Shown piece after piece: positions 410 through 57,320 of a stretch of 64,000 bases of DNA. Position numbers and translations under genes: made by a program. Within the stretch, counting starts at the first letter, position 1. Each line of letters starts with the position of its first letter. The stretch comes from Polaromonas sp. (GTDB lineage Bacteria > Pseudomonadota > Gammaproteobacteria > Burkholderiales > Burkholderiaceae_C): NCBI RefSeq assembly GCF_036676035.1, contig NZ_JAKFDR010000057.1:1572-65571 (forward strand), in the 5' to 3' direction. A model generated the notes under the pieces. The model had not been told where the DNA came from, did no database searches, and saw nothing but the letters and a program-made list of their open reading frames with translations.

Positions 410-574
410 CTAGTGTGGTGTTGCACGCTTGCAGGTACAAATAAAACCGATGGATTTTTGTCCAGGGCTAGGCGCAAACCACAGCCATAGTTCCACTATG
501 GCGCGGATTTGCAACGCCGCCATGGGCAAAAAGACGCGGTTTTATGTGCCTGATAGCGTGCAACACCACACTAG
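410..574. mobile_element. MITE family A, copy 1 (165 bp)
   Basis: Perfect 20-bp terminal inverted repeat CTAGTGTGGTGTTGCACGCT...AGCGTGCAACACCACACTAG; two homologous copies at 46987-47154 and 57156-57320; no transposase. Confidence 0.9.
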
Positions 575-576
575 CT

Positions 577-1050
577 TCAAAGCACTTCCGGCGACTGCAC
601 GGTCACCACGACAGTCTGCTCATGGCCGTCGCGGTCCCGGCTGCGCAGCCACCAGACTGCGCCCTTTTTCACCGGGCATTCGCTTTCCTGCAGGCCCAGC
701 AGCTGAGCAATCGTTTGACCCAAAGTGGGCTGGTGTCCGATCAGGAGAACGGGGGATTTGCCCAGGGGCCATTGCGCCAGTTCCAGCACTTGGGCCGGCG
801 ATGCACCGGGCCCCAGCTCCGGCCGGATTTTGTATTTACGCCCCAGCGCCAGCGCCGTCTGTTCGCAGCGGCGCGCCGGGCTGACCAGAATGCGGGCGCC
901 CTCGGGCAGTTGCCGGTCCAGCCAGGCTGCCATACGGGCGGCCTGTTTTTCGCCCCGGGCGGTCAGCGAACGATCCAGATCGCTGCTGACCTGGGCATCA
1001 CCTTGGGGCCCATCTTCAGCCTCTGCATGACGCCACAAGATCAGGTCCAT
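577..1050 (-). CDS. sixA: phosphohistidine phosphatase SixA family
   Basis: MDLILWRHAEAED (RH motif), SPARRCEQT, LLIGHQP. Confidence 0.9.
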   Translation of the reverse strand: MDLILWRHAEAEDGPQGDAQVSSDLDRSLTARGEKQAARMAAWLDRQLPEGARILVSPARRCEQTALALGRKYKIRPELGPGASPAQVLELAQWPLGKSPVLLIGHQPTLGQTIAQLLGLQESECPVKKGAVWWLRSRDRDGHEQTVVVTVQSPEVL

Positions 1051-1057
1051 CAAAGCT

Positions 1058-3175
1058 CTACTTTCCCCGTGTTTCACGCCCATTCTGGCGTGCCGAGTAA
1101 CGGGCCATCAGCGCCGCCTGGGCCCCATGCCTGGGGCCCTTCGCCTGCAGATCAACCCGGGTGTAGGTGCCATCCGCCTGCAAATCCCAAGCATCGCAGC
1201 TGTCATGCAGATAGGCGACCAGACACTCGTCAATGATGCGCTGGCGGATGACAGGGTCCGTGACGGGCCAGGCCAGTTCCACCCGGCGCAGCATGTTGCG
1301 GTTCATCCAGTCAGCACTGGACAGGTAAAGCGTTTCCTCATCGGCGCAGCGGAAGTAAAAGACCCGGGAATGCTCCAGAAAGCGCCCAATGATGGAGCGC
1401 ACCCGGATGTTGTCCGTGACGCCCGGCACCTGCGCCGGCAACATGCAGGCACCGCGCACAATCAGGTCGATTTTCACGCCACGCTGGCCGGCCCGGATCA
1501 AGGCCAGGATCAGGGCCTCGTCGGTCAGCGCATTCATCTTGGCCACCAGACGCGTGTCCTTGCCCAGTGCGGCAGCTTCACCCAACTGGTCAATTTTTTC
1601 AATCAGCTTGCGGTGCAGTTGAAATGGCGCCAGCAGGAGGTAATGCAGCCTGGGCAGACGGCTGTGGCTGGCCAGATGCACAAAGACGCTGTCGATATCG
1701 GCCGTGAGCAGTGGGTCGCTGGTCAGGTAGCTCAGGTCGGTGTACAGGCGGGCGGTGCGCGGGTTGTAGTTGCCGGTTGACAGGTGGGCGTAGCGCTTGA
1801 GGTGGCGGCCTTCCCGGCGCGTCACCAGCAGCATCTTGGCGTGGGTCTTCAGGCCCATCACACCGTACACCACCTGCGCGCCAATGGACTCCAGCATCTC
1901 GGCCCAGTTGATGTTGGCTTCCTCGTCAAAGCGGGCCTTGAGCTCCACCACCACCGTCACCTCCTTGCCGCGCCGCACCGCTTCACGCAACAAGCCCATC
2001 AGCTCGGAATCGGCGCCGGTGCGGTAAATGGTCTGCTTGATAGCCAGCACCTGCGGGTCATGGACAGCTTCACGCAGGAAAGCCAACACCCCGTCAAAAC
2101 TCTCAAACGGCTGGTGGATGGCCACATCCCCCTGCTGGAGCTGCTCAAAAAATGATTGCCCCGGCACCAGCTGGGTGGGATAACACGCCGCGTAGGCCGG
2201 AAACAGAAGCCGGGGATCGTTGACGAGGTCCACCAGCTGGGTCAGCCGCACCAGATTGACCGGGCCATGGACCCGGTACAGCGACGGCGTCGGCAGATTG
2301 AACTGCTTGAGCAAAAATCCGGAAAGGTAGTCCGAGCAGGCGGCAGATACTTCCAGACGGACGGCCTGACCGTAGTGGCGCTGCTCCAGGCCCTGGCGCA
2401 GTGCGGTACGCAGGTTTTGCACATCGTCTTCATCCACCGCCAGGTCGGAATGCCGTGTCACGCGGAACTGGGAGAATTGCGAGACTTCGCGCCCCGCAAA
2501 CAGCTCCGCCAGATGCGCGCGGATCACGCTGGACAGGGACACAAACAGGCTTTTCTTGTTCGAGCCTTTGTCAGGCATGTGAATCAGCCGTGGCAGAACG
2601 CGCGGCACCTTGACAATTGCAATGTCGTTTTCACGGCCAAACGCATCGCGCCCACCCAGGCGGACAATGAAGTTCAGCGACTTGTTGGCCACCTGCGGGA
2701 AAGGGTGCGAAGGGTCCAGCCCCACCGGGATCAGCAGCGGGCGCACCTCGCGCTCAAAGTAGTCCTTGACCCAGCGCCGCTGGGCCGGGTTGCGCTCACC
2801 GTGCGACAGGATCTTGATGCCTTGCTTTTCGAACTCGGGCATCAGCTCATCGTTGTACAGCGAGTACTGGCGCGCCACCATGCCGTGCGCCGCGGCCGCA
2901 AGCGCTGTGTACGACTGCGCGGTGTACAGGCCTTTTTGCTCGTTGTTCTGAGCCGCTGTCAGATGGGGTGCGGCGCGCACTTCAAAGAACTCATCCAGGT
3001 TGGACGAGACAATGCAGAGAAAGCGCAAGCGCTCCAGCAAGGGAACATCCGGGCGCTTCGCCCAGTCCAGCACCCGCTCATTGAAGGCAAGAATACTGTG
3101 GTCGCGGTCCAGCAGCTGGATGGCTGGCATCGCCACAGCGGAGGACGGGAGCGGCTCGGCAGTCAAAAAGGACAT
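1058..3175 (-). CDS. ppk1: polyphosphate kinase 1
   Basis: LRFLCIVSSNLDEFFEVR, HPFPQV, ELKARFDEEANI, GLKTHAKM, HLSTGNYN, IGRFLEHSR, SSADWMNRN; start codon uncertain. Confidence 0.97.
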   Translation of the reverse strand: MSFLTAEPLPSSAVAMPAIQLLDRDHSILAFNERVLDWAKRPDVPLLERLRFLCIVSSNLDEFFEVRAAPHLTAAQNNEQKGLYTAQSYTALAAAAHGMVARQYSLYNDELMPEFEKQGIKILSHGERNPAQRRWVKDYFEREVRPLLIPVGLDPSHPFPQVANKSLNFIVRLGGRDAFGRENDIAIVKVPRVLPRLIHMPDKGSNKKSLFVSLSSVIRAHLAELFAGREVSQFSQFRVTRHSDLAVDEDDVQNLRTALRQGLEQRHYGQAVRLEVSAACSDYLSGFLLKQFNLPTPSLYRVHGPVNLVRLTQLVDLVNDPRLLFPAYAACYPTQLVPGQSFFEQLQQGDVAIHQPFESFDGVLAFLREAVHDPQVLAIKQTIYRTGADSELMGLLREAVRRGKEVTVVVELKARFDEEANINWAEMLESIGAQVVYGVMGLKTHAKMLLVTRREGRHLKRYAHLSTGNYNPRTARLYTDLSYLTSDPLLTADIDSVFVHLASHSRLPRLHYLLLAPFQLHRKLIEKIDQLGEAAALGKDTRLVAKMNALTDEALILALIRAGQRGVKIDLIVRGACMLPAQVPGVTDNIRVRSIIGRFLEHSRVFYFRCADEETLYLSSADWMNRNMLRRVELAWPVTDPVIRQRIIDECLVAYLHDSCDAWDLQADGTYTRVDLQAKGPRHGAQAALMARYSARQNGRETRGK

Positions 3176-3225
3176 TCGGGGCGAAAACATTTGTAATCAA
3201 AGTTACAGCCGAGTGTTCACTGGCT

Positions 3226-4326
3226 TCATGACAAAGGCGTGACAGTGGTTTTGGCCGATATGACAGCCGGCTGCACCTGCCTCGAAGCCGCCGCCTGACG
3301 GGCGGGCACCAGATAACTTTCAAATAACTGGGCGGCATGCTGCCAGCTGAAGTCCAGGGCGCGGGCCCGGGCCTCATGCCGGGGCACGGCCAGAGCGCCG
3401 TAGCAGGCTTGCTGCAAATCCGTGTGCATGACACCGCCGTGACAGCTGCCATCGGGTTTTCCCAGCACTTCAAGCGGGCCGTCCACGGGATAAGCGGCGA
3501 CAGGTGTTCCCGTTGCCATGGCTTCCAGCATCACCAGGCCGAAAGTTTCAGATTTGCTGGGAAACACAAAAACATCTGCCGCCGCATAGACTTTGGCCAA
3601 CTCGTCCCTGGGCAACACCCCCAGCCAGCGAACTTGCGGATAGCGCTCCTTCAACGAAGCTTCCAGCGGCCCGACACCGCAAACCACCTTGGTGCCGGGA
3701 ATGTCCAGCCGCAGATAGGCCTCGATGTTCTTCTCGTAGGAAACGCGCCCGACAAACAGGGACATCGGGCGGACAAGCATGCCCATCCGGGCCTGCAGAC
3801 GCGATGCAGGTGTAGTTTCAAATTTGAAAAGCTGCGTGTCCACGCCATGCGTCCAGCCGCGCAATTGGCGAAAGCCGCGCTGCTCCAGCATGTGCAGCAC
3901 CCCGTGGGTCGGCACCATCACGCCGGACGAGGGCTTGTGAAAGTGGCGAAACAGCGCATAACCCCAGGACAGCGGGATTCTCAAAGCGGCATGAAGGATT
4001 TCCGGGAACTTGGTGTGAAACGCGGTCGTGAAGTTCAAGCCGCGCTTGAGGCAGTAGCTGCGCGCCGCCCAGCCCAGCGGCCCTTCCGTGGCGATGTGGA
4101 CCGCTTCGGGCTGCAGGGCGTCGAGTTTTTCAGTCAACTGGCGCTTGGGGCGAATGGCCAGCTCAATGCCGGCATAGCCCGGACAAGGCCGGGTTTTGAA
4201 CAGGCCGGGATGAAACACCTCCACCTGGTGCCCCAGGGCCTGCAGCTCACGCACCAGCTCCACCAGCGTGGTCACCACGCCGTTCACCTGCGGCTGCCAG
4301 GCGTCCGTGATCAAGGCGATTTTCAT
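3226..4326 (-). CDS. glycosyltransferase family 4 (Agt-like glycolipid synthase candidate)
   Basis: MKIALITDAWQPQVNGVVTTL, VGRVSYEKN, FVFPSKSETFGLVMLEAMATGTPV; ATGA overlap with the upstream gene. Confidence 0.88.
   Translation of the reverse strand: MKIALITDAWQPQVNGVVTTLVELVRELQALGHQVEVFHPGLFKTRPCPGYAGIELAIRPKRQLTEKLDALQPEAVHIATEGPLGWAARSYCLKRGLNFTTAFHTKFPEILHAALRIPLSWGYALFRHFHKPSSGVMVPTHGVLHMLEQRGFRQLRGWTHGVDTQLFKFETTPASRLQARMGMLVRPMSLFVGRVSYEKNIEAYLRLDIPGTKVVCGVGPLEASLKERYPQVRWLGVLPRDELAKVYAAADVFVFPSKSETFGLVMLEAMATGTPVAAYPVDGPLEVLGKPDGSCHGGVMHTDLQQACYGALAVPRHEARARALDFSWQHAAQLFESYLVPARQAAASRQVQPAVISAKTTVTPLS
3228..3245 (-). promoter_or_regulatory. Pho-box-like tandem site upstream of ppk1, inside the 3' end of the GT4 gene
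   Basis: Minus strand CTGTCAC-GCCT-TTGTCAT: two 7-mers 11 bp apart, matching PhoB half-site consensus. Confidence 0.55.
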
Positions 4327-5183
4327 GCGGTCACCGGCGCGCTGACATGGCCGCGGCCCTGGGTTTCATGGGTCGGCGCCCAGTGCAGCAGCTCCAGCCG
4401 GCCGTCGAAGTGCTCGACCAGGGCGGTGCGGCTTTCAACCCAGTCACCGTCATTGCAGTACAGCGTGCCATTGATCTCGCGCATTTCGGCGCGGTGAATA
4501 TGGCCGCACACCACCCCCTGGTAGCCCCGGCGGCGGGCTTCGCTGGCCACCGCCACTTCAAAGTCGGTCACGTAGTTCAGCGCTTTTTTGACCTTTTGCT
4601 TGAGATAGGCTGACAGCGACCAGTAAGGCAGGCCCATGCGTGCGCGCAAGCTGTTCAGATAGCGGTTGAGCTTGAGCGTGAATTCATACAGGTTGTCGCC
4701 CACATAGGCGAGCCATTTGGCACATTGCACCACCGCATCGAAGTAGTCGCCGTGGATGATCCACAGCTTGCGGCCATCGGCGGTGTTGTGGACGGCCTCG
4801 TCAATCACCTCGATGCCGCCGAACTGGTTGCCAATAAATTCACGCGCAAACTCATCATGGTTGCCCGGCACATAAATGATGCGGCAGCCTTTGCGGGCAC
4901 GCCGCAGCAGCTTTTGAACCACATCGTTATGCGACTGCGGCCAGTACCATTTGCGCCGCAACTGCCAGCCATCCACGATGTCCCCCACCAGGTACAGGTA
5001 ATCACTGGGATGGGCCTTCAGAAAGTCCAGCAGTGCCGAGGCCTGGCAGCCCGGGGTGCCCAGGTGCAGATCCGAAATGAAAATCGTGCGGTAGCGCTTG
5101 CGCAGCGATTCATCATCGTGCGCATCATCGGGCTGGGCAAAACCGTTGCCCAGCGTGCCCATGGCTTCAAACAGGGTTCGCAT
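4323..5183 (-). CDS. metallophosphoesterase, LpxH-like / PlcP-type phospholipase C
   Basis: FISDLHLG, LVGDIVDGW, PGNHDE, IHGD, CGHIH, NDGDWVES; WYWPQSHNDVVQKLLR segment resembles the PlcP subgroup as I recall it. Confidence 0.8.
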   Translation of the reverse strand: MRTLFEAMGTLGNGFAQPDDAHDDESLRKRYRTIFISDLHLGTPGCQASALLDFLKAHPSDYLYLVGDIVDGWQLRRKWYWPQSHNDVVQKLLRRARKGCRIIYVPGNHDEFAREFIGNQFGGIEVIDEAVHNTADGRKLWIIHGDYFDAVVQCAKWLAYVGDNLYEFTLKLNRYLNSLRARMGLPYWSLSAYLKQKVKKALNYVTDFEVAVASEARRRGYQGVVCGHIHRAEMREINGTLYCNDGDWVESRTALVEHFDGRLELLHWAPTHETQGRGHVSAPVTA

Positions 5184-6052
5184 CAGGCCTGCCTTGCATG
5201 GCCGGCAGACGGGGGCTTGCCTGAAAAATGCTTCAGGTAGCGTGGTGGCAGGTCGGCAATGCGCATCATCATCGGCAAGTCGGCCGAGTTGAAATCCGGG
5301 TCCCACGCCGGGGCGCCCAACACCTTCGCACCCAGGCGCAGGTAGCCCTTGATCAGGGCCGGCGGCTCCACATCCAGTGTGTCGTCGAGCTGCTCGACCG
5401 GCAGCGCCAGCCGTGGCGTCACGTGGTATTCAATCGGCGCCATGTGCGTTTGCCGGACCTGCCGCCAGATGCTGGCCGCAATGTGGCCGCTGGAGACCCC
5501 GTCGTGCTGCATCGGAATGCTGGCGCAGCCGATCATGGTGTCGAGCTGGTTGCGCGCCATGAACTCGGCCAGCGCGCCCCACAGGGCCAGAATCACACCG
5601 CCATGCCGGTGATCGGCATGCACGCAGCTGCGGCCCAGCTCGACCATGCGATCGCGCAGGCTGCGCAGGCGGGTCAGGTCGAACTCGGTGTCGCTGTAGG
5701 TGCTGCCCACGCGCTTGGCCTGGGTCGGCGTCAGCACCCGGTAGGTGCCTATGACCTCGCTGCTGTCGGCATCGCGCACCAGCAGGTGCTCGCAGTAGTC
5801 GTCAAACAGGTCGATGTCATGGCCCGGCAAGGTGTTGGGCAGCGTCGCCCCCATCTCGCTGGCGAAGACCTGGTACCTCAGACGCTGCGCCTGCCGGACC
5901 TCATCCTGATGGCGGGCCCAGCCGACCTGGATTTTCCCCACGGCAGGTTTTTGAACAAGGGCTGGACTGACAACATGACCGCTTTGATGAAGTGACCCCC
6001 GTGGCATGGCGACTGGCGACAATGCAAAGGTGGGGTTGGGCAGTTCTTTCAT
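5183..6052 (-). CDS. GNAT N-acyltransferase, OlsB (ornithine lipid)-like
   Basis: AQRLRYQVF, DIDLFDDYCEHLLV, VIGTYRVL, ELGRSCVH, PALIKGYLRLGA, DPDFNSAD; SD AAGGAG upstream; TGATG coupling to the next gene. Confidence 0.8.
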   Translation of the reverse strand: MKELPNPTFALSPVAMPRGSLHQSGHVVSPALVQKPAVGKIQVGWARHQDEVRQAQRLRYQVFASEMGATLPNTLPGHDIDLFDDYCEHLLVRDADSSEVIGTYRVLTPTQAKRVGSTYSDTEFDLTRLRSLRDRMVELGRSCVHADHRHGGVILALWGALAEFMARNQLDTMIGCASIPMQHDGVSSGHIAASIWRQVRQTHMAPIEYHVTPRLALPVEQLDDTLDVEPPALIKGYLRLGAKVLGAPAWDPDFNSADLPMMMRIADLPPRYLKHFSGKPPSAGHARQA

Positions 6053-6154
6053 GGCTAACTCCTTGTTATCTGGGTGTCTCAAAAAATGAAAACCGCTTGC
6101 TTGAAATTCGGCTGTAAAAAAGCCCCGGGAAAGGGGCTTGGGGGGCTTTGACTC

Positions 6155-6418
6155 TCAATCACCAGTGGCCTGCGAAACCGCGGCCCCATGTCGGCCACCC
6201 GGCAACCCGTCCAGCCAGGGCCGGGCACCCGCCTTGAAACGCAAGCCCCCGGGGCTACTGACCATGGCCTGCGCGGTGCATCGCAGGATGCGCAGACGCT
6301 GTTTGTCGAGCTCATGGATGCCGGGGTTGGAGGCCTCGCTGACGTCTCTACCCTGTTTTCCCTGCTCACCGGCCTGGTTCAACTTCAGTCTCATCGGGTG
6401 CTCCATCGTTCTGGTCAT
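6155..6418 (-). CDS. possible small ORF in the leader of the olsB-like operon
   Basis: 87-aa ORF starting 22 bp downstream of the Pho-box array; no family recognised. Confidence 0.3.
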   Translation of the reverse strand: MTRTMEHPMRLKLNQAGEQGKQGRDVSEASNPGIHELDKQRLRILRCTAQAMVSSPGGLRFKAGARPWLDGLPGGRHGAAVSQATGD

Positions 6419-6440
6419 GGCGTGATTCTGAAAGCCGGGG

Positions 6441-6480
6441 GTGACGCGTTCGTGTCAGTTCAGTGGCAGTTGTGTGACAG
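6441..6480 (-). promoter_or_regulatory. Pho-box-like array (four half sites, 11-bp period)
   Basis: Minus strand CTGTCAC-ACAA-CTGCCAC-TGAA-CTGACAC-GAAC-GCGTCAC, oriented toward the olsB/plcP/GT4/ppk1 genes. Confidence 0.7.
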
Positions 6481-6709
6481 CGCCCGCCGGGTCTGGGCTG
6501 CCAGACGACCAGGCGGGTCGTCGCCTTCCATGAGAGGCAACCCCACGGACGGGCCTGAAACGGCGAGCAGGGCCTGGCCAACCCGGTTGAGACTTTTCGC
6601 TATCAAATCAGGAGCTACTTGCGCACGTTTATCCGGGGCTGGAGCCTGAAAAGGCATCAAGATTTTCAGCGCCTGCCGGGAAGCTTGGGAAGCTCCACAG
6701 GAAGCGGCT

Positions 6710-7140
6710 CTAAGCGCCGGCCACACGCTCTCCCCGCTCGTTGATGACCTGCTCGCCATCCTCCTTGGCGAATGCGCCGCGTTGCGGCAAGGGCAGGATG
6801 TCCAGAACGGCCTCTGACGGACGGCACAAGCGCGTGCCCAGCGGCGTCACCACCACCGGCCGGTTGATCAGGATGGGTGTGCCAGCATGGCATCGATCAG
6901 TTGATCGTCGGTGAGCAAGGGGTTGTCCAGCTGCAGCTCGTCATAAGGCGTGCCCTTGCGTCTGAGCAGCTCCCTGACCGGAATCCCCATTTGGGCAAGC
7001 AGCTCGAGCAGCTTTTGTCGGCTGGGCGGCATCTTCAGGTACTCGATGACTTCAGGCTCTTCCCCGCTATTGCGGATCAGGCCGAGCACATTGCGCGACG
7101 TGCCGCAACCGGGGTTGTGATAAATCGTGATGTTGGGCAT
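6710..7140 (-). pseudogene. arsC: glutaredoxin-dependent arsenate reductase with a 1-nt frameshift
   Basis: IYHNPGCGTSRN N-terminus; frame ends at MLAHPS*, but the shifted frame continues ILINRPVVVTPLGTRLCRPSEAVLDILP to TAG at 6710-6712. One base is missing near 6875 (real or sequencing error). Confidence 0.85.
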
Positions 7141-7216
7141 GCAGGCTGGTCCTTGTTGATGCAGGTGGGTGCGATGAAGCTTAGATGCGGGTGGGCTTAT
7201 TGGCGTTGCGTTGATA

Positions 7217-7251
7217 TTGCATCAATTCAATAATTCAATTATATTTGAAAC
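7217..7251 (+). promoter_or_regulatory. arsR promoter with overlapping ArsR-type operator; likely leaderless transcript
   Basis: TTGCAT(7217-22)-17 bp-TATATT(7240-45)-6 nt-ATG(7252); inverted repeat TTCAA-TTATAT-TTGAA at 7234-7249; no SD. Confidence 0.55.
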
Positions 7252-7593
7252 ATGGAAATAAAAACCCTCGACGAAGCTTCCGCCATCAAGGCCCTGGCCG
7301 CGCTCGCGCAAGCGCAGCGGCTGCGCGCCTTCCGGGCACTGGTGGTGGCCGGGCCGGATGGCCTGACGCCCGGCACTCTTGGCCTGCAGCTGGACGTAGC
7401 GCCCAGCGCGCTGTCGTTCCACCTGAAAGAGCTGGCTTATTCGGGCCTGGTCAGCAGTGAGCCGCGTGGCCGCCACCTGATTTACCGCGCCAATTTTGAG
7501 CAGATGAGCGCCCTTTTGAGCTACATGACCGAGCACTGCTGCCAGGGCCAGGCCTGTGAGGTCAGTGCCGAGGCGGCCTGCATCAACTGCTAA
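7252..7593 (+). CDS. arsR: ArsR/SmtB family repressor
   Basis: LAALAQAQRLRAFRALV, ALSFHLKEL, GRHLIYRA, C-terminal HCCQG Cys pair. Confidence 0.92.
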   Translation: MEIKTLDEASAIKALAALAQAQRLRAFRALVVAGPDGLTPGTLGLQLDVAPSALSFHLKELAYSGLVSSEPRGRHLIYRANFEQMSALLSYMTEHCCQGQACEVSAEAACINC

Positions 7594-8155: not shown

Positions 8156-8431
8156 TCACTCAACCTAGAAACCGCAGTTGACCGCTCATTGACCGCTGGC
8201 TGAACCTCATGAACACGTACCTACCAACTCACGTACACGTTCACCTTTTGGGTGACAGCGCTACGCACCCGATTGAGCCGCCCTGGCGCGCGCTGGCGGC
8301 GTTGCTCCTCCTTGCAGGCATCAGCCTGCTGCCTCGTCACGCCTTGCCAGCCCACCCCATGCCGACCCACTCGGGCGCGTCCAACTGCGGTTTCTAGGTT
8401 CAAGAAACCAAACAACCACAAGGAGCAAGCT

Positions 8432-10661: not shown

Positions 10662-11795
10662 TCAGTCGCATCCCTTGAACTTGCGCCGCTGACAGTCACG
10701 CGCCATCTGCTGTGCTTGGGCGACTTGCTGCGATGACATCAGGCTTGAAACGGAGTCGCGCCTTTTCACTGCAGCTGCAAAGCCCGCCTCGGCACCAAGG
10801 CTGAACCACATGTGCGCACGAACATGGTCCTGCACGACGCCATTCCCATCGGCATACATCAGACCGAGGCTGTACTGCGCTTTCACATCCCCCTGCGCTG
10901 CGGCCAGGCGAAACCACTTGAGCGCTTCCGCGTAATCCTGCGCGACGCCTTCCTGATCGCGATACATCACACCGAGGTTGAACTGCGCCAACGCATACCC
11001 CTGCGCCGCAGCCAGTCGAAACCATTTGAGCGCTTCTGCATCATCCTGTTCGACACCTAGCCGATCGCGATACATCATGCCGAGGTTGGACTGCGCAGCC
11101 GTCTCCCCCTGCGCTGCGGCCAGCTGAAACCATTTGAGCGCTTCCGCGTAATCCTGCGCGACGCCTTGCCCTTTGAAATACATCACGCCGAGGTTGTATT
11201 GCGCATCCGCGTGCCCCTGCGCTACGGCCAGTCGAAACCATTTGAGCGCTTCCGCGTAATCCTGCGCGACACCGTGCCCTTGGAAATACATCACGCCAAG
11301 GTTGGACTGCGCTTTCGCATCCCCCTGCGCTACGGCCAGTCGAAACCATTTGAGCGCTTCTACATAATCCTGCGCAACGCCTTGCCCGTTGGCATACATC
11401 AGGCCGAGGTTGAGCTGCGCTTTCGCATCCCCCTGCGCTGCGGCCCGTCGATACCACTTGAGCGCTTCCGCGTAATCCTGCGCGACACCGTGCCCTTGGA
11501 AATACATCCCGCCGAGGTTGTACTGCCCAGTCGCATCCCCCTGCGCTGCGGCCAGCCGATACCACTTGAGCGCTTCGGCGTAATCCTGCGCGACGCCTTG
11601 CCCATTGGCATACATCGCGCCGAGGTTGGATTGCGCAATCGGATATCCCTGCTCTGCAAGGGAGCGAGTTATTTTCAGTGCCTTTGCATAATCACCGCGA
11701 CCATAAGCTGCAGCCGCATCTTCAACTGGACCTGCCCACGCCGTACCAACGCCCAGCAGCAGGAGAGTCATCACCGTAAGAAGCAGTCGTTTCAT
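10662..11795 (-). CDS. secreted Sel1-like repeat (SLR) protein
   Basis: Signal peptide MKRLLLTVMTLLLLGVGTAWA; eight 36-aa repeats AQxNLGxMYxxGxGVAQDYAEALKW; 108-nt period (ATACATC at 10854, 10962, ... 11610). Confidence 0.92.
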   Translation of the reverse strand: MKRLLLTVMTLLLLGVGTAWAGPVEDAAAAYGRGDYAKALKITRSLAEQGYPIAQSNLGAMYANGQGVAQDYAEALKWYRLAAAQGDATGQYNLGGMYFQGHGVAQDYAEALKWYRRAAAQGDAKAQLNLGLMYANGQGVAQDYVEALKWFRLAVAQGDAKAQSNLGVMYFQGHGVAQDYAEALKWFRLAVAQGHADAQYNLGVMYFKGQGVAQDYAEALKWFQLAAAQGETAAQSNLGMMYRDRLGVEQDDAEALKWFRLAAAQGYALAQFNLGVMYRDQEGVAQDYAEALKWFRLAAAQGDVKAQYSLGLMYADGNGVVQDHVRAHMWFSLGAEAGFAAAVKRRDSVSSLMSSQQVAQAQQMARDCQRRKFKGCD

Positions 11796-45642: not shown

Positions 45643-45669
45643 GAGCTTGCACCGCCTTTTTGTTCTTAA

Positions 45670-46003
45670 GAGCCTGTTTACGATTTATTTGGGGTCGCGT
45701 TGGGACGCAATCGGGATGAGTTGGCTGCCAACATCGCGCCGCATGGGCTCATGCCCATGCAAGGGATTTGGCTGTCAAATCGCCCGACCGCACAGCCGGT
45801 CGGCTGTGCGTCGTGCGGCTGCCCCAATGGGGATGCAAACGCGTCCGCGTTTGCGTCGCCCCAACCCGAAGGGCAGGTGCCTTTTCGGGCGGTCTGCGGC
45901 GTTGCACTGCTTGCCAATAGCCGGGCTATTGGCGGCGCACTGCGTCTTGCATTCCATCCCGAAAAGACACCTGCGCGACCCCAAATAAATCGTAAACAGG
46001 CTC
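45670..46003. mobile_element. MITE family B (334 bp)
   Basis: 30-bp perfect TIR GAGCCTGTTTACGATTTATTTGGGGTCGCG, flanked by TAA on both sides; interior is a chain of hairpins; no ORF of note. Confidence 0.9.
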
Positions 46004-46159
46004 TAACAACGTCTTGAGCCTAAGCGGGGTTCACATTACCCTCATGTACGGCTTGCATATTGCCGCAACTTTTGTAACAGTGTGTCAAAGTAACTCCAAT
46101 AGCCGGTTTGTCACCTTTTCAGCCCTCAAAATGTGCTTGTTACAAATTACGTGATGACT

Positions 46160-46986: not shown

Positions 46987-47154
46987 CTAGTGCGGTGTTG
47001 CACGCTATCTGGCACATAAAAAAATGCGTCTTTTCGGCCATGGCGGCGTTGCAAATCCGCGCGATACCTACGGGTATCGCTGTGGTTTGCGCCTTGCCCT
47101 GACCAAAAGTCCATCATTTTTATTTGTGCCATCAAGCATGCAACACCACACTAG
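46987..47154. mobile_element. MITE family A, copy 2 (reverse orientation)
   Basis: CTAGTGCGGTGTTGCACGCT...AGCATGCAACACCACACTAG. Confidence 0.88.
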
Positions 47155-50148: not shown

Positions 50149-50298
50149 GAGGTCATCATAGATTCTAAAATCAGGGTCTGGCTGCTTGACGCACCCCATA
50201 CACCCCATTCCGCCCGGTTTGGGGTGCTTGTCTTTTGCTTCTTGCCTTTCACTTGATTTTGCCGGCTGATTTTTGACTGCTTTACCGATCGCTGATTG

Positions 50299-53200
50299 AT
50301 GGACTTACCCAAACTCGTTCCCGGCAAGCGCTACACCCTGCCGCAGCCCGCGGGCTCTGCCGACGCCCTGCTGCTCGCCCACCTGGGCCTGCGGGAAAAA
50401 TCCGCCGGCAGGCTCACCGCCATCATCACGTCGGACGCCGCCACCGCCCAGCGTCTGATCGACGAGATTGCGTTTTTTGCGCCCGATCTGCGCTGCGCGC
50501 TGTTTCCCGACTGGGAAACCCTGCCCTACGACACCTTCTCGCCGCACCAGGACCTGATCAGCGAGCGGCTGGCCACCTTGTGGCGGATCTCGCAGCGCGA
50601 CAAGGAAACCGGCGCCGACCTCGTCATCGTGCCCGCGACCACCGCGCTGTACCGGCTGGCGCCCCCCAGTTTTCTGGCGGGCTACACCTTTCATTTCAAG
50701 GTCAAGCAAAAGCTCGACGAAGCGCGGCTCAAGGCCCAGCTCACGCTGGCCGGGTACAGCCACGTGACGCAGGTGGTGAGCCCCGGCGAATACGCCGTGC
50801 GCGGCGGCCTGATTGACCTGTTCCCCATGGGCTCGGCCGTGCCTTACCGCGTCGACCTGTTTGACGACGAGATCGACAGCATCCGCACCTTCGACCCCGA
50901 CAGCCAGCGCAGCCTGTACCCGGTGCCCGAAGTGCGCCTGCTGCCGGGCCGTGAATTCCCCATGGACGACGACGCGCGCGCCAAATTCCGCAACCGCTGG
51001 CGCGAACTGCTCGATGGCGATCCGACCAAGAGCCGCATCTACAAGGACATGGGCAACGGTGTGGCCACCGCCGGCATCGAGTACTACCTGCCGCTGTTTT
51101 TTGAAGACACCGCCACCGTGTTCGACTACCTGGGCAGCGATGCAACTGTCGTGTTGCACGGCGACCTGGAACCGGCTTTCCAGCGCTTCTGGCAAGACAC
51201 CAAAGACCGTTACCGGCTGGTTCGCAATGCGCCCGACCGGCCTGCCCTGCCGCCAGAATCGCTGTTTCTGGGCACCGAACAGTTTTACGCCCGCGCCAAC
51301 GACTACGCCCAGCTGGCGTTGAAAGCGGGGAGCCCTCTCCCTCTCCCAGGGGGAGAGGGGATTAAGGGGAATTTACTCCCTCTCCCCCTGGGAGAGGGCA
51401 GGGGTGAGGGCTCCCCGTACGTCGAATTCAACTCACTACCGCCAATGGCCGCCGTTCGTGGCGCCGAAGACCCTTTGGCCCGGCTCAAGGCGCACATCCA
51501 CAACACGCCACACCGCGTGCTGGTGCTGGCCGAAAGCGAGGGCCGGCGCGAAAGCCTGCTCGACTTTCTGCACGCCAGCAATGTCAGCCCGCCCGCGTTT
51601 GACTCGCTCGAAGACTTCCAGGTCAGCGACGAAAAACTGGGCATTGCCACAGCGGCCCTGGATGTGGGCTTTAGCTGGCTCGAAGCCGGCATCGACTTCG
51701 TCACCGAAACCGAGCTGTTTGCCGCCGGTGCCGTCACGCGCCGGCGCAACAAAAAACAGGAACAGGTCAGCGATGTCGAAGCGCTGATCAAGGATCTCTC
51801 GGAGCTCAATGTCGGTGACCCCGTGGTCCATAGCGCCCACGGCATTGGCCGCTACAGGGGCCTGATCAATATGGACCTGGGCCAGGAAAAAAACCCCGAC
51901 GGCACGCCCGCGCTTCAGGAATTTTTGCACCTTGAATACGCCGACAAGGCCACGCTGTATGTGCCCGTCAGCCAGTTGCATCTGATCAGCCGCTACACCG
52001 GCGTCAGCGCCGAAGAAGCGCCACTGCACCGGCTGGGCAGCGGCCAGTGGGAAAAGGCCAAGCGCAAGGCCGCCGAGCAGGTGCGCGATTCGGCCGCCGA
52101 GCTGCTCAACATCTATGCCCGCCGCGCGGCACGCGAGGGCCATGCTTTCCGCTATTCACCCCACGACTACGAAGCTTTCGCCAACGATTTCGGCTTTGAG
52201 GAAACCGCCGACCAGCGCGCCGCCATTCATGCCGTGATTCAGGACATGATCAGCCCGCGCCCCATGGACCGGCTGGTCTGCGGCGACGTGGGCTTTGGCA
52301 AAACCGAAGTCGCCCTGCGCGCCGCCTTCATCGCGATTACCGGTGGCAAACAGGTCGCCTTGCTGGCGCCCACCACGCTGCTGGCCGAGCAGCACTACCA
52401 GACGCTGGTCGACCGCTTTGCCAAATGGCCGGTGAAAGTGGCCGAGATGAGCCGCTTCCGCTCGACCAGGGAAATCACCACCGCCATCAAGGGCCTGGCC
52501 GATGGCAGCGTGGACATTGTGGTGGGCACGCACAAGCTGCTGAGCCAGGACGTGAAGTTCCAGCGCCTGGGCCTGCTCATCATCGATGAAGAGCATCGCT
52601 TTGGCGTGCGTCACAAGGAAACCATGAAGGCCATGCGCGCCGAGGTGGACGTGCTCACGCTGACGGCCACGCCGATTCCGCGCACGCTGGGCATGGCGCT
52701 GGAAGGCCTGCGCGACCTCAGCGTGATTGCCACCGCGCCGCAGCGGCGCCTGGCCATCAAGACCTTTGTGCGCAGTGAAAACAACGGCGTCATCCGTGAG
52801 GCCGTGCTGCGCGAACTCAAGCGTGGCGGCCAGGTGTACTTCCTGCACAACGAGGTGGACACCATCGAGAACCGCCGCCAGAAGCTCGAGGAAATCCTGC
52901 CCGAGGCGCGCATTACCGTGGCCCATGGTCAGATGCCCGAGCGCGAGCTGGAGCGGGTGATGAAAGACTTCGTGGCGCAGCGCTACAACCTGTTGCTGTG
53001 CTCCACCATCATTGAAACCGGCATTGACGTGCCGACGGCCAACACCATTGTGATGAGCCGTGCCGACAAGTTTGGCCTGGCCCAGCTGCACCAGCTGCGC
53101 GGCCGGGTCGGACGCTCGCACCACCAGGCCTATGCCTACTTGATGGTGCCCGACATCGAGGGCCTGACCAAACAGGCCAGCCAGCGGCTCGAAGCCATCC

Positions 53201-53859
53201 AGCAGATGGAAGAGCTTGGTTCGGGCTTTTACCTCGCCATGCATGACCTGGAGATTCGCGGCACGGGCGAGGTGTTGGGCGAAAACCAGTCCGGCAACAT
53301 GCTCGAAGTGGGGTTTCAGCTCTACAACGAAATGCTCTCGGAGGCCGTGCGCAGCCTCAAAGCCGGCAAGGAGCCTGACCTGCTGGCGCCGCTGTCGGTC
53401 ACCACCGAGATCAACCTGCATGCCCCGGCCCTGCTGCCGTCCGACTACTGCGGCGATGTGCACCTGCGCCTGAGTTTTTACAAAAAACTGGCCACAGCCA
53501 AGAACACCGATCAGATCGATGCGCTGCTGGAAGAAATCGTCGACCGCTTCGGCAAGCTGCCCGCGCAGGCACAAACGCTGGTCGACGTGCACCGCCTGCG
53601 CGTGATTGCCAAGCCTTACGGCGTGCTCAAGGTCGATGCGGCGCCGGGCATGATCAACATCACCTTCAAGAAAGACCCGCCCATCGATTCGATGGCCATC
53701 ATGCAGCTGATCCAGAAAAACCGGCACATCAAGCTGGCCGGCAATGACAAGCTGCGCATTGAGCGCGAGCTGGAAAACCCCAAGGACCGCGCGCAGTTGG
53801 TGCGCGATGTGCTGCGCAGTCTGGGGCAACCCAAACCCGTGACATATGCCGAGGCATAG
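50299..53859 (+). CDS. mfd: transcription-repair coupling factor
   Basis: ETLPYD, GDVGFGKTEV, IDEEHRFG, TATPIPRTL, QLRGRVGR, DLEIRG; carries a 30-aa insertion. Confidence 0.98.
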   Translation: MDLPKLVPGKRYTLPQPAGSADALLLAHLGLREKSAGRLTAIITSDAATAQRLIDEIAFFAPDLRCALFPDWETLPYDTFSPHQDLISERLATLWRISQRDKETGADLVIVPATTALYRLAPPSFLAGYTFHFKVKQKLDEARLKAQLTLAGYSHVTQVVSPGEYAVRGGLIDLFPMGSAVPYRVDLFDDEIDSIRTFDPDSQRSLYPVPEVRLLPGREFPMDDDARAKFRNRWRELLDGDPTKSRIYKDMGNGVATAGIEYYLPLFFEDTATVFDYLGSDATVVLHGDLEPAFQRFWQDTKDRYRLVRNAPDRPALPPESLFLGTEQFYARANDYAQLALKAGSPLPLPGGEGIKGNLLPLPLGEGRGEGSPYVEFNSLPPMAAVRGAEDPLARLKAHIHNTPHRVLVLAESEGRRESLLDFLHASNVSPPAFDSLEDFQVSDEKLGIATAALDVGFSWLEAGIDFVTETELFAAGAVTRRRNKKQEQVSDVEALIKDLSELNVGDPVVHSAHGIGRYRGLINMDLGQEKNPDGTPALQEFLHLEYADKATLYVPVSQLHLISRYTGVSAEEAPLHRLGSGQWEKAKRKAAEQVRDSAAELLNIYARRAAREGHAFRYSPHDYEAFANDFGFEETADQRAAIHAVIQDMISPRPMDRLVCGDVGFGKTEVALRAAFIAITGGKQVALLAPTTLLAEQHYQTLVDRFAKWPVKVAEMSRFRSTREITTAIKGLADGSVDIVVGTHKLLSQDVKFQRLGLLIIDEEHRFGVRHKETMKAMRAEVDVLTLTATPIPRTLGMALEGLRDLSVIATAPQRRLAIKTFVRSENNGVIREAVLRELKRGGQVYFLHNEVDTIENRRQKLEEILPEARITVAHGQMPERELERVMKDFVAQRYNLLLCSTIIETGIDVPTANTIVMSRADKFGLAQLHQLRGRVGRSHHQAYAYLMVPDIEGLTKQASQRLEAIQQMEELGSGFYLAMHDLEIRGTGEVLGENQSGNMLEVGFQLYNEMLSEAVRSLKAGKEPDLLAPLSVTTEINLHAPALLPSDYCGDVHLRLSFYKKLATAKNTDQIDALLEEIVDRFGKLPAQAQTLVDVHRLRVIAKPYGVLKVDAAPGMINITFKKDPPIDSMAIMQLIQKNRHIKLAGNDKLRIERELENPKDRAQLVRDVLRSLGQPKPVTYAEA
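51327..51416. repeat. 90-bp palindromic element inserted in frame in mfd
   Basis: 11-bp terminal IR GGGGAGCCCTC / GAGGGCTCCCC enclosing two CTCTCCC-N3-GGGAGAG hairpins. Confidence 0.85.
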
Positions 53860-53876
53860 GCTAAACTAAAGCCTAT
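53845..53876 (+). promoter_or_regulatory. candidate VapBC operator palindromes overlapping the mfd stop
   Basis: TATGCC-GA-GGCATA (53845-58) and ATAGGCT-N7-AGCCTAT (53856-76). Confidence 0.45.
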
Positions 53877-53897
53877 CCGCACTCATGGGAGAAGATC

Positions 53898-54206
53898 ATG
53901 CATCACGTCGCTGAAAAAACTGCTGAATACCCAGTGGAGGCCCCAGCGCGTCATGTGCGCCTGTTTCGCAACGGGGCCAACCAGGCCGTGCGTATTCCCA
54001 AAGAGTTCGAATTGCCCGGTAAAGAGGCGATCATGCACCGCGAAGGCGACCGGCTCATTATTGAAGCCGTCACAGTCAAACCCGCCAAAGGCACGCTGGC
54101 TGCGCTGGTTGCGGCGCTGGAGGCCATGCAACATCTGGAGCCGGTGCTTGAACCGTTTCCCGACGTCGATGAAGGCATGTTGCCCCTGGATGACATCAAT
54201 TTATGA
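53898..54206 (+). CDS. vapB: AbrB/MazE-type antitoxin VapB
   Basis: LFRNGANQAVRIPKEF, REGDRLII; ATGA overlap with a PIN toxin. Confidence 0.9.
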   Translation: MHHVAEKTAEYPVEAPARHVRLFRNGANQAVRIPKEFELPGKEAIMHREGDRLIIEAVTVKPAKGTLAALVAALEAMQHLEPVLEPFPDVDEGMLPLDDINL

Positions 54207-54646
54207 CCGGCTCAATCCTGACGCCACTCCTGCTCGACACCAACATCATCTCCGACATGATGCGCGACCTGCAAGGCCCAGCGGCAAGGCGTGCCATGGC
54301 AGCCGACCCATCAAGCGCGAGCCGACCGTTGTACACCAGTGCGGTGGTTCAGTGCGAGCTGGAGTACGGCCTTGCACGGCGCAAGAACGCTCGCCTGGAG
54401 GTGGCTTACCAGGGCGTCATGGCCACGGTTGAGGTGCTGCCAATCACCAGCGACGTCGCCGAGCACTACGCCCGTCTGCGCACCCAATTGGAAGCCCTTG
54501 GCCAGCCTATCGGCCCCAACGACGCACTGATTGCCGCCCATGCGTTGGCCCTGGATGCCACCCTGGTCAGCGCCGATGCCGAATTCCGTCGTGTACCAGG
54601 GCTGCGGGTTGAAAACTGGCTGGAACCAGAAAATACAGCCAAATAG
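54203..54646 (+). CDS. vapC: PIN-domain toxin VapC
   Basis: LLDTNIIS, ELEYG, IGPNDALIAAHA, LVSAD..EF.RVPGL.VENW. Confidence 0.92.
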   Translation: MTGSILTPLLLDTNIISDMMRDLQGPAARRAMAADPSSASRPLYTSAVVQCELEYGLARRKNARLEVAYQGVMATVEVLPITSDVAEHYARLRTQLEALGQPIGPNDALIAAHALALDATLVSADAEFRRVPGLRVENWLEPENTAK

Positions 54647-54695
54647 GCTTGCAGCCCATTCGTTTATTGCGCTACCAGCTATCAAAATAATAGTA
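54642..54695 (+). repeat. 54-bp repeat supplying the vapC stop
   Basis: aaTAGgcttgcagcccat...gcgctaccagctatcaaaataatagta. Confidence 0.8.
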
Positions 54696-54703
54696 CCCAC
54701 CCC

Positions 54704-55417
54704 ATGACTCCCACAGAAATCTCCCCCGGCCTCGTCGTCAACGTGGCAATGCCTTCATCTTTAAAGCTCAGCGACTTCAAGCTGATCGCCTTCGACATGG
54801 ATTCCACGCTCATCAACATCGAATGCGTGGACGAAATCGCCGATGCAGCCGGCCGCAAGGCCGAGGTTGCGGCGATCACCGAAGCCGCGATGCGCGGCGA
54901 AATCACCGACTACAAAGACAGCCTGCGCCAGCGCGTGGCCCTGCTCAAGGGCGTGACTGTGGCCAGCATGGACGAGGTCTATCGCCTGCGCCTCAAACTC
55001 AACCCCGGTGCGGCGGAACTGGTGCAGGCCTGCAAGGCAGCCGGCCTGAAGGTGCTGCTGGTCAGTGGCGGCTTTACGTTTTTTACCGACCGCATTCGTG
55101 ACGAGTTGGGCATTGACTACACCCGCTCCAACGTGCTTGAAACCGAGAACGGCCTGCTCACGGGCCGCATGGTGGACCAGCCCTGGGGAGACATCTGCGA
55201 CGGCGCGGAAAAACGCAAGATGTTGCTGGAGACCTGCGGCCAGCTCGGCATCGACCCGAAGCAAGCCATTGCCATGGGCGACGGCGCCAACGACCTGCCC
55301 ATGATGGCCGCGGCCGGCCTCTCGGTGGCCTACCACGCCAAGCCCAGGGTGCGCGAGCAGGCCATGGTGGCCATCAATGATGGTGGGCTGGACCGCTTGC
55401 TGGAAATAATCGCTTAA
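54704..55417 (+). CDS. serB: phosphoserine phosphatase
   Basis: FDMDSTLINIECVDEIA, VSGGF, GDGANDLPM, AYHAKP. Confidence 0.95.
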   Translation: MTPTEISPGLVVNVAMPSSLKLSDFKLIAFDMDSTLINIECVDEIADAAGRKAEVAAITEAAMRGEITDYKDSLRQRVALLKGVTVASMDEVYRLRLKLNPGAAELVQACKAAGLKVLLVSGGFTFFTDRIRDELGIDYTRSNVLETENGLLTGRMVDQPWGDICDGAEKRKMLLETCGQLGIDPKQAIAMGDGANDLPMMAAAGLSVAYHAKPRVREQAMVAINDGGLDRLLEIIA

Positions 55418-55446
55418 AGCATGCCCCTGTTCATCAGTACCCCGGA

Positions 55447-57039
55447 TCAGGCCTTTTCAATTACCGGACGCCCGGCCTGTACAGAAAACTGCGCCAGGGT
55501 TTCAATGCTGCTGTCCTGACGGGTGACGTCACTCACGACACGCAAGGTGGTCGTCAGTTGCCGGGGCGTGAACTCCACCACGCCATAGCCCCGGCGCTCC
55601 GAATCGGCAAACACAAAGTGCGGATTCTCGGCCAGGTACTCGGGAATTTTGGCGTTGCCGGCCGAGCGCGAGGTGATGCTGGTGCCGCAAAACTCCACCC
55701 CGATGGCAGGACTGGCGGCATCGGCATAGTCCGCCTTGACATGGCCCACCCAGTTCTCATGCACGTCGCCCCCCAGCAGCACCGGGTTGCTGGCGGCGTT
55801 TTTGCGCAAGGCATCCAGCAGGCGCGTCCGCGCTGCCGCGTAGCCGTCCCAGCCGTCATTCCATAGGCGCTGTCCCGGCCCCGGATGAAGATCGCGCTGC
55901 CCGAACAGCGAGGTCTGGCCCAGCACGTTCCAGCCGGTTTGCCTGCTGCCAGCCCTGCCCAGCTCGGCATCGAGCCAGCGCTCCTGCGGCAGGCCCAGCA
56001 TGCTGCGTGCCGGGTCGTTCCATGACAGGCAGGTGGCCGGTTTCAGCGTGCCCGATCGCCCCTTGCCTTGTGGGGTGCAGACCTGCGCATCCTTGTACTG
56101 CCGTGCATCCAGCATGTACAGCGATGCCAGCCGCCCATAGTGCAGACGGTTGTGGATGCGCATCTCGGAGCCGCTTGCCAAACCCGCCACAGCGCGGGTG
56201 AGCACCGACGCGCGAACCGGCATGTGTTCATAAAAGGCCTGGTAGGCCGCAGCACGCCTGGCCGCAAAGCTTGCCACCGCCGGGCCGTTGTCGCCTTCTG
56301 TCAAGCCCGCGTAATCGTTTTGCACCTCGTGATCGTCCCAGGTGAGCAGCCAGGGGCAGGCCGCATGCATGGCCTGCAGGTCAGCGTCCCCCTTGTGCAG
56401 GGCATAACGCTGACGGTAGTCGTCCAGCGTCAGCACCCAGCCGCCCGTCGGCACACGGACCGCGTTGCCGGCATTGGGGTATTCATAGATGTAGTCCCCC
56501 AAGAACAGCACGAGGTCGAGGTTTTCATCGCGCATGTGCCGGTAGGCGCTGTAGTAGCCGTGCTCCCAGCGCTGGCACGACGCATAGGCCAGCCGCAGTC
56601 GTGCCACCGCGGCATCGGGCGCCGGGAAGGTGCGCGTGCGGCCGGTGCTGCTTACGGCATCGCCTGTGGCAAAGCGGTAAAAGTACCAGCGATCCGCCTC
56701 CAGCCCCTGCACCTCCACATGCACGGAATGCGCGAGCCCGGCCTGCGCCTGGGATTGGCCGGTTTGGACCAGGTGGAAAAATTTCTCGTCATGCGCCACC
56801 TCCCAGCGCACGGTGACGGGCCCCTGCTGCAGACCTGAAGCCTGGTCCTTCCCAAAAACCAGCCGCGTCCATAACACCACCGAGTCATGGGTGGGGGAGC
56901 CGCTGGCAACCCCCAACCGGAAGGGATTGGCATCCAGGCGCGGCTGGGCCCATGCGTTGCGTGGCAGCCACAAGCCGGCGGCGCTGGCAGCAGCCCACTG
57001 CAGCAGCTGGCGGCGGTCGGTCAACAAAGAGGTGTTCAC
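55447..57039 (-). CDS. phoD: alkaline phosphatase D (Tat-exported)
   Basis: DRRQLL, GVASG, GDYIYE, WDDHEV.ND, LDARQY, WDGY, GDVH; GTG start assumed. Confidence 0.92.
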   Translation of the reverse strand: MNTSLLTDRRQLLQWAAASAAGLWLPRNAWAQPRLDANPFRLGVASGSPTHDSVVLWTRLVFGKDQASGLQQGPVTVRWEVAHDEKFFHLVQTGQSQAQAGLAHSVHVEVQGLEADRWYFYRFATGDAVSSTGRTRTFPAPDAAVARLRLAYASCQRWEHGYYSAYRHMRDENLDLVLFLGDYIYEYPNAGNAVRVPTGGWVLTLDDYRQRYALHKGDADLQAMHAACPWLLTWDDHEVQNDYAGLTEGDNGPAVASFAARRAAAYQAFYEHMPVRASVLTRAVAGLASGSEMRIHNRLHYGRLASLYMLDARQYKDAQVCTPQGKGRSGTLKPATCLSWNDPARSMLGLPQERWLDAELGRAGSRQTGWNVLGQTSLFGQRDLHPGPGQRLWNDGWDGYAAARTRLLDALRKNAASNPVLLGGDVHENWVGHVKADYADAASPAIGVEFCGTSITSRSAGNAKIPEYLAENPHFVFADSERRGYGVVEFTPRQLTTTLRVVSDVTRQDSSIETLAQFSVQAGRPVIEKA

Positions 57040-57155
57040 GGAGTTCTCCCCGGCGAGTACGCTGAAAAGATCATGAGCTGGGCGTTTTCGTTTCGGGCCA
57101 TTATCCATGCCGCATGGCGCTGGCTCCCAGCCTTCTTGCGCACAGAGCTGGCAAA

Positions 57156-57320
57156 CTAGTGTGGTATTGCATGCTTGACGGCACTAATAAAACCGATGGA
57201 TTTTTGTTCAGGGCAAGGCGCAAACCACAGCAATAGTTCCACTATTGCGCGGATTTGCAACGCCGCCATGGACAAAAAGACGCGGTTTTATGTGCCGGAT
57301 AGCGTGCAACACCACACTAG
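57156..57320. mobile_element. MITE family A, copy 3
   Basis: CTAGTGTGGTATTGCATGCT...AGCGTGCAACACCACACTAG. Confidence 0.88.

Follow-up and report, generated by a model that had tools for sequence, protein, structure and literature searches.

A conserved hairpin core in bacterial miniature inverted-repeat elements with ends from different insertion sequence families

The window analyzed here, 64,000 nt of the Polaromonas sp. contig NZ_JAKFDR010000057.1 (assembly GCF_036676035.1), carries several miniature transposable elements with inverted repeats (MITEs) that share an internal hairpin, referred to below as the module. As judged by sequence comparison, a pan-bacterial superfamily of MITEs has this hairpin as its conserved core, while the ends are exchangeable and come from at least three families of DDE transposase elements. 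A sequence-only reading of the window had described two MITE families, A (three copies) and B (one copy), as non-autonomous elements with unrelated ends that carry a selected, covarying structure as cargo. All four elements were found where that reading had placed them, the four stem pairs quoted for them were correct, and the idea of a selected structure on non-autonomous elements with unrelated ends is supported here on a far larger scale. Shared carriage of the module was borne out as well, although we prefer the word core to cargo because the polarity of the module and its distance to the element end are fixed. The total of four modules was too low, since a fifth copy, in an element of family G, had been overlooked (Table 1); the covariance model placed a sixth copy 177 nt beyond the end of the window.

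Structure and conservation of the module

Folding and alignment showed that the module is an imperfect hairpin or rod of ~80 nt, of which the 53-54-nt motif described earlier is the centre. It contains a near-invariant, asymmetric block, GCGGCGTTGC ... GCGCCTTGC (on the other strand, GCAAGGCGC ... GCAACGCCGC), flanked by strongly covarying helices. Its base is formed by a helix whose sequence is free; two base pairs follow, and then comes a conserved helix, GGCGT/GCGCC, which includes a T.G pair and has a TT bulge next to it on the 3′ side and TGC on the 5′ side. Further toward the tip, a second helix or internal loop leads to the apical stem, which is 5-11 bp long and closed by a loop of 3-7 nt. 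The module could also pair in a different register: TGC would then be matched with GCG, and the conserved helix would continue into the second one. The block can also be read as an inverted GGCG/CGCC, each half then followed by a direct TTGC, which gives the bulges and the T.G pair. Neither a conserved apical loop nor a UNCG-type loop was found among 121 copies, in 3 of which the loop was TACG. Two unusual copies were noted. A 263-bp MITE of a Nitrospirales genome (locus L133, 215-477; genome G044) holds one good module and a diverged partner, AGCGTCGC ... GCTCCTTGG, whose T7-to-C/G48-to-T variant recurs in two aligned copies. In the source genome of the window, a module at C123:23431-23561 keeps the usual conserved blocks and basal helix, but an insert of ~85 nt replaces its apical hairpin; it lies directly 3′ of a stop codon, and no terminal repeats were evident around it.

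The covariation proposed earlier holds in the same 121 copies, which come from many phyla and were aligned by fitting to the model, a procedure that favours structure. In this alignment 83.6% of the paired cells were complementary, compared with 58.4% after shuffling and 31-45% with slid partners (covariation score 0.531 versus 0.144), and changes on both sides were present at 21 of 27 pairs. Covariation also reached into the block, where the pair 0-54 occurred as G-C, T-A, A-T and C-G, the change from GC to AT at positions 8 and 9 was accompanied by the same change at 46 and 47, and G3 to T was accompanied by T52 to A in four separate contexts.

The conservation of the block across phyla is in part a product of construction, an exact block pattern having served to find most of the foreign copies, but 19 nt were fixed at >93% even in copies that had not been found by pattern, and the helices and the element ends had diverged to saturation. 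A pattern-independent estimate of constraint was obtained from the source genome only, using 59 copies in seven families. Within families, substitutions amounted to 2.8% in the 19-nt block, whereas the flanks reached 8.8% and the variable helices 7.9%, and singletons amounted to 1.25% in the block versus 2.8% elsewhere (p = 0.001).

The placement of the module was equally regular. In 69 of 91 elements, 54-59 nt separated the final G of GCGCCTTG from the outer edge of the inverted repeat closest to it, the other arm fell into discrete classes of ~51-57, 131-135, 157-163 and 226-231 nt, and the extra DNA was always on the GCGGCG side. Where an element held two modules, the GCGCCTTG side of each faced its own end.

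The two strands of the module are not equivalent. In 112 of 115 modules, the two spacers next to the apical stem, taken jointly, were rich in pyrimidines on the GCGGCG strand (mean 0.63, versus 0.5 expected of a palindrome), mismatches between pyrimidines outnumbered those between purines (310 versus 52), and the complementary strand folded better in 123 of 150 modules with RNA parameters (by 4.8 kcal/mol) and in 127 of 150 with DNA parameters. Taken together, these asymmetries argue that the module is not a plain duplex palindrome decaying symmetrically. There was no excess of G.T over A.C in the variable helices (118 versus 147) and no bias in orientation relative to flanking genes (12 same, 9 opposite), nor was a replichore bias evident along two chromosomes whose ori and ter were not mapped. 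Orientation is thus random with respect to genes and to chromosome position, as would fit a module that serves the mobility of the element itself and not host transcripts.

Element families, their ends and their distribution

In the source genome, a draft of 4.30 Mb in 136 contigs with 62.8% G+C, a loose pattern followed by the covariance model gave 101 matches in at least nine MITE families, which were separated by their ends, size and stem sequences (Table 1). Single-module elements were ~165 bp long and double-module elements ~265 bp, and those with a one-sided stretch of extra DNA measured 235-335 bp. Of the assessable copies, 47 of 49 were intergenic. Half of the listed module matches (50 of 99) lay within 400 nt of a contig end (e.g., on C1, C10, C52, C74, C77, C100, C113, C117 and C136), so that these MITEs evidently break the assembly and are a main cause of its fragmentation. 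One hybrid copy, with an A-type module inside E-type ends, suggests that cores are exchanged between MITE families. As is characteristic of prokaryotic MITEs, the elements have inverted repeats and target duplications, are small, non-coding and present in many copies, in several families share their ends with insertion sequences, and show presence/absence polymorphism.

Autonomous transposases with the same terminal repeats, which the sequence-only reading had proposed to look for, were found for the ends of families C/F and G and for some CTAG-type ends; none had exactly the ends of families A or B. For C/F, the same ends belong to an IS5-family element of 830 bp on the P. aeruginosa plasmid pWTJH2; this element has DUF4096 and DDE_Tnp_1 domains, the NCBIfam assignment IS5_3 and an A8 frameshift site. 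For G, the element with the same ends lies on a Polaromonas plasmid, is 1.6 kb long and has a TTA duplication; its 510-aa DDE_Tnp_1_4 transposase has IS1380 as best NCBIfam model at 155 bits, below the cut-off of 180, and a G-type MITE lies 350 bp away. CTAG-type MITEs in Paracidovorax and in a metagenome-assembled genome (MAG) of Planctomycetota have the ends of a 1.17-kb IS630 element on the Pseudomonas plasmid pMPC6-328K, which is itself flanked by CTAG. By these matches, the ends of module-bearing MITEs are those of at least three unrelated DDE families, namely IS630, IS5 (IS427-like) and IS1380-like, and elements of these families can presumably mobilise the MITEs in trans.

The module itself was absent from the three end-matching insertion sequences. 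It was not found within the loci of above-cut-off IS1182 transposase genes in three carrier genomes either (G044, G043 and G008; best E 0.087). Several candidates for an autonomous carrier were discarded: locus L068 proved to be a MITE plus a mini-palindrome of inverted repeats only, the unpaired inverted repeats of a Nitrospirales chromosome and of Streptomyces S186 were solo remnants or lay beside ordinary genes, and pairs of modules 2.7-3.2 kb apart flanked housekeeping genes. In the source assembly neither PF13701 nor PF13340 was detected, and IS630 was present only as a truncated remnant comprising the C-terminal DDE part (C44:1483-1755); the ~100 copies are therefore without an intact resident partner in the assembled part of the genome. 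No recurrent neighbouring protein was seen at 120 module loci, where nothing but generic families (response regulators and ABC ATPases, for example) appeared. Mini-palindromes of 36-59 bp, made up of two terminal repeats and no module, were observed beside full 168-bp MITEs at L068 (3146-3182) and in Streptomyces S186 (1986393-1986451, 5263527-5263585 and 6474172-6474229).

The exact pattern GCGGCGTTGC-N30-38-GCGCCTTG was present in 17 of 41 related genomes, whereas a reversed control pattern gave zero matches everywhere. In a scan of one genome per species, the exact pattern identified at least 120 loci, and nearly all of the 120 listed had the same hairpin architecture at the centre of MITE-like palindromes. 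Named carriers, each with the module inside a MITE-like palindrome, belong to at least eight phyla (Pseudomonadota, Actinomycetota, Planctomycetota, Acidobacteriota, Verrucomicrobiota, Nitrospirota, Elusimicrobia and Latescibacterota) and include Streptomyces, Nocardioides, Crossiella, Acidimicrobiales, Bifidobacteriaceae, Nitrospirales and many beta-, gamma- and deltaproteobacteria. The model found at least 150 copies on a Nitrospirales chromosome, 78 in Ottowia caeni, 28 in Massilia, 27 in an Acidimicrobiales genome and 21 in a Streptomyces. Among 301 sampled Pseudomonadota genomes, 59 had the module at E ≤ 1e-5, which means that the covariance model detects these elements in about a fifth of them. 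A family of Pseudomonadota with ~2-Mb genomes (f49) was especially rich in modules; it accounted for ~40 of the 59 positives, many with at least 15 matches. In Ottowia caeni, modules in the same orientation 166 nt apart (C1:1710501, 1710667 and 1710833) form a tandem array of the 165-bp element, and in a Rhodoferax MAG (L030, ~7000-7230) a module-bearing palindrome lies directly 3′ of a tRNA gene. A phage origin was considered and dropped, as pattern matches in viral contigs were mostly chance matches in coding sequence that lacked the hairpin; it follows that the pattern alone does not force the structure and that the element is not a phage feature.

Possible roles of the module and comparison with known elements

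Because one module serves the ends of unrelated transposases, it is not a specific transposase site, and the combination of one core for unrelated transposases with a fixed geometry to the terminus points most likely to an architectural element that does not depend on the transposase. The reading that we prefer, with some reserve, is that the module is a transposase-independent, cis-acting structural element selected for MITE propagation, likely as folded DNA or as a site for a host factor. Short elements would propagate better with the module than without it, and this would account for its selection. Its likeliest form would be an extruded hairpin or cruciform in DNA, or an asymmetric site for a conserved host protein. 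Placed ~54-59 nt from the nearest terminus with fixed polarity, it could serve as an architectural site or hinge, aiding the synapsis or processing of two ends separated by just ~110 bp; an analogue may be offered by the IHF sites found close to the ends of transposons, which play a similar part. The invariant block would be the recognised portion, and the helices would need only to pair. Mobility of the elements, seen in the absence of copy A2 from the orthologous site in relatives, supports this reading. More speculative is a fuller version in which a pan-bacterial "MITE core," with its invariant bulge-helix-bulge block, might be read by a universally conserved host factor or through a special geometry, boost the mobility of short elements and be passed between MITEs that parasitise IS630, IS5 and IS1380-like elements.

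Several observations weigh against the preferred reading. A hinge role alone leaves the 19 conserved nt unexplained, and the strand signals disagree, the T.G pair favouring one strand and the purine-rich loops and better folding the other. The depletion of singletons in the block could mean selection after insertion, that is, a role at the level of the host. The estimate of block conservation is inflated by the exact-pattern discovery of most foreign copies. Finally, families A and B are assigned to probable insertion sequence families from target site and terminus type, with no identical autonomous copy.

The module might instead work as RNA, which we consider less likely. MITE transcripts would fold into a rod whose conserved internal loop would be a processing, stability or protein-binding signal or mark the source of a small RNA, and on the complementary strand the motif would take the form of purine-rich internal loops with tandem G.A pairs. 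The joint purine-richness of the spacers on that strand and its better folding with RNA parameters agree with this, double-module elements place one sense copy on each strand, and the depletion of block singletons may reflect constraint after insertion. However, DNA parameters give the same folding asymmetry, G.T does not exceed A.C in the variable helices, and orientation to flanking genes is unbiased; in addition, the apical loop is not conserved, no promoter was identified, and the module matches no Rfam family, a match that would have counted against the earlier reading. The whole window gave no Rfam match at gathering scores, and around the B1 and A2 copies only chance-level matches appeared at E ≤ 10 (P33, at 16.6 bits versus a threshold of 45, lay off the module). 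The fixed polarity and 54-59-nt distance to the nearest terminus, together with the presence of one unit per end in double-module elements, would also be expected if the module were the relic of one end of an ancestral autonomous element, such as a structured leader or subterminal hairpin ~54 nt inside the inverted repeat, which MITEs inherited before the terminal repeats were replaced. We regard this as improbable, since descent alone leaves the fixed block unexplained and no autonomous carrier of the module emerged from the three matching insertion sequences, the IS1182 loci of three genomes, the pairs 2.7-3.2 kb apart or the 120 loci.

Two further explanations seem to us very improbable. 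In one, the module has no function, its block reflecting common descent and its compensatory changes the self-correction of quasi-palindromes by template switching without selection. The whole MITE is indeed palindromic, the two strands of family A fold equally well, no wobble signature was seen, and block conservation is inflated by the route of discovery. On the other hand, 19 nt remain fixed across phyla while helices and ends are saturated, block substitutions are three times rarer within families, the asymmetric bulges and the T.G pair have never been "corrected" to a perfect palindrome, and double-module elements keep the module hairpin even though it lies off the symmetry axis of the element; nor can the pyrimidine/purine asymmetry come from symmetric decay. 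In the other, the module is a small mobile or recombination unit read as folded single-stranded DNA (ssDNA) by an HUH/Y1 enzyme, as in REP/RAYT and IS200/IS605 systems, or by an integrase, as with attC sites, and this would explain its moves between MITE families. Such a unit would suit a bulged hairpin with two direct TTGC repeats on one strand, the resemblance of double-module elements to REPINs, the hybrid copy, and a few apparently solo modules (L013; C123:23431). Within each family, however, the position of the module is constant, which argues against independent movement, and there is neither a replichore bias nor a recurrent neighbouring gene; the GTAG motif of REP and the R″/R′ motifs of attC are absent.

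REP, BIME and REPIN sequences, which are mobilised by RAYT, an HUH enzyme whose gene is their partner, have no terminal repeats or target duplication and carry a GTAG motif. Like them, the modules are hairpin repeats that occur in inverted pairs with a conserved short motif beside a variable stem, but identity with them was rejected, as the module elements have inverted repeats and duplications, lack GTAG and have no recurrent neighbour at 120 loci. Integron attC sites are recognised in folded form through the R″/R′ consensus RYYYAAC/GTTRRRY. The module resembles them in retaining structure with free sequence and in its extrahelical bases (bulges); this identity was also rejected, since neither strand of the block fits the R″/R′ boxes and there is no cassette context and no integrase.

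The module elements also resemble other MITEs. In bacteria, IS630 has given rise to MITEs (for example, Nezha in cyanobacteria and RUP in Streptococcus pneumoniae), as has IS5, and the elements described here are likewise short, lack coding sequence and have terminal repeats that insertion sequences share in identical form, a TA (CTAG) or TNA duplication, many intergenic copies and presumed mobilisation in trans by a DDE transposase. To our knowledge, those families are lineage-specific and defined by their ends, whereas here one internal module extends across the ends of three insertion sequence families and at least eight phyla. Correia elements (CREE/NEMIS) of Neisseria are 100-155 bp long, with inverted repeats, a TA duplication and an internal IHF site, and their processing by RNase III is documented. 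They share with the module elements the short inverted-repeat form and the occurrence of single and composite versions, but they are confined to one genus, have different ends and lack a conserved bulged hairpin. Among plant MITEs, Stowaway (Tc1/mariner) and Tourist (PIF/Harbinger) use the same two target types, TA and TAA/TTA, the IS5-type ends seen here are similar to the Tourist-like termini GGGCCTGTT/GAGCCTGTT, and internal sequence tunes the activity of a Stowaway element; they differ in being eukaryotic and in forming two superfamilies without a common core module. A literature search by sequence and topic found no description of the module.

Other identities were set aside. A sigma-54 promoter has the wrong GG-GC spacing, and the module is present in Actinomycetota; a sigma-70 promoter would require a conserved -10, which is missing; module lengths are not multiples of 3, as coding sequence would be; and a RuvC site is contradicted by the two TTGC, whose strands are not a pair that would be cleaved together by a junction resolvase. 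A dif or parS site, a K-turn and domain V of a group II intron were considered from sequence and dropped, as was a MOBQ nic site, to which the resemblance is only loose.

MITEs are usually seen as deletion derivatives that are defined only by their ends. Retention of the 19-nt block and hairpin in at least eight phyla, whatever the transposase family, therefore suggests a second requirement for the success of a MITE, for which a host factor, DNA geometry and an RNA role are candidates. If the fuller version is true, the "MITE core" would itself count as a mobile structural module and would offer a general answer to the problem of end synapsis in 165-bp elements.

Elements and other repeats of the window

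The five module copies of the window lie in three elements of family A and one each of families B and G. The motif GGCGTTGC-N28-40-GCGYCTWG occurs four times in the window, compared with 0.01 expected from 100 shuffles.

Table 1. Module-bearing elements of the window, followed by the element families separated in the source genome
Feature	Position	Strand	Size	Ends or duplication	Module
Family A MITE, copy 1 (A1)	410-574	-	165 bp	CTAG both ends	454-534(-), 61.3 bits
Family G MITE	8163-8399	+	237 bp		8283-8359(+), 37.3 bits, E 6.6e-7
Family B MITE	45670-46003	+	334 bp		45882-45963(+), 74.1 bits
Family A MITE, copy 2 (A2)	46987-47154	+	168 bp	CTAG ends	47029-47110(+), 51.7 bits
Family A MITE, copy 3 (A3)	57156-57320	-	165 bp	CTAG ends	57200-57280(-), 62.6 bits
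Families A and E			~165 bp	CTAG ends	
Family B			334 bp	TAA duplication	
Families C/F and C/D			~265 bp	ends GGGCCTGTTAACGC	two modules head to head
Families G/H			~237 bp or larger	TNA duplication	
Family I			165 bp	ends TTA-GGGCTCGTTCAG	

The three aligned family A copies have a column identity of 93%. Their terminal repeat, described earlier as 20 bp long with CTAG ends, was indeed perfect over 20 bp (CTAGTGTGGTGTTGCACGCT), and it extends imperfectly to 35 nt at 86%; the CTAG ends fit a putative duplication of TA within CTAG targets, which is also the pattern of IS630. The apical stem is GCGATACC/GGTATCGC in copy A2 and GCAATAGT/ACTATTGC in copy A3, and for copy A1, treated as ssDNA, the folding z was -4.8 for the strand of the module and -6.2 for its complement. 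In 7 genomes of the same genus, the orthologous spacer lacked copy A2; a base-exact empty site was sought in these 7 genomes and not found, as their spacers are too diverged.

The long inverted repeat with TAA flanks that had been reported for family B was measured as perfect over 31 nt (GAGCCTGTTTACGATTTATTTGGGGTCGCG), with the TAA duplication at 45667-45669 and 46004-46006. Its module lies 54 nt from the right end of the element and 227 nt from the left end, and the TNA duplication and the GRGCCTGT terminus make family B probably IS5/Tourist-like. The family G element has the inverted repeat ACCTAGAAACCGCAGTTGACC, which matches an IS1380-like insertion sequence on the Polaromonas plasmid CP087967.1, and is flanked by a TCA target duplication at 8160-8162 and 8400-8402; other copies of this family have TGA, TCA, TAA or TTA. 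Its module is a TCCTCC...CGTC variant that terminates in ACGCCTTG, and on the complementary strand the TCCTCC...CGTCGTC variant reads GACGAGG.../...AAGGAGGAGCAACGCC.

Two repeats of other kinds were noted in the window. At 10696-11751, a 108-bp unit is repeated eight times in tandem with 61-79% identity, probably as a repeat-domain coding region. A second, unrelated repeat family with GCTAT-N7-ATAGC (TATTTGATAGCTGCTTGCG) occurs at 63323-63388 and 63934-63999 and, inverted, at 54641-54693.

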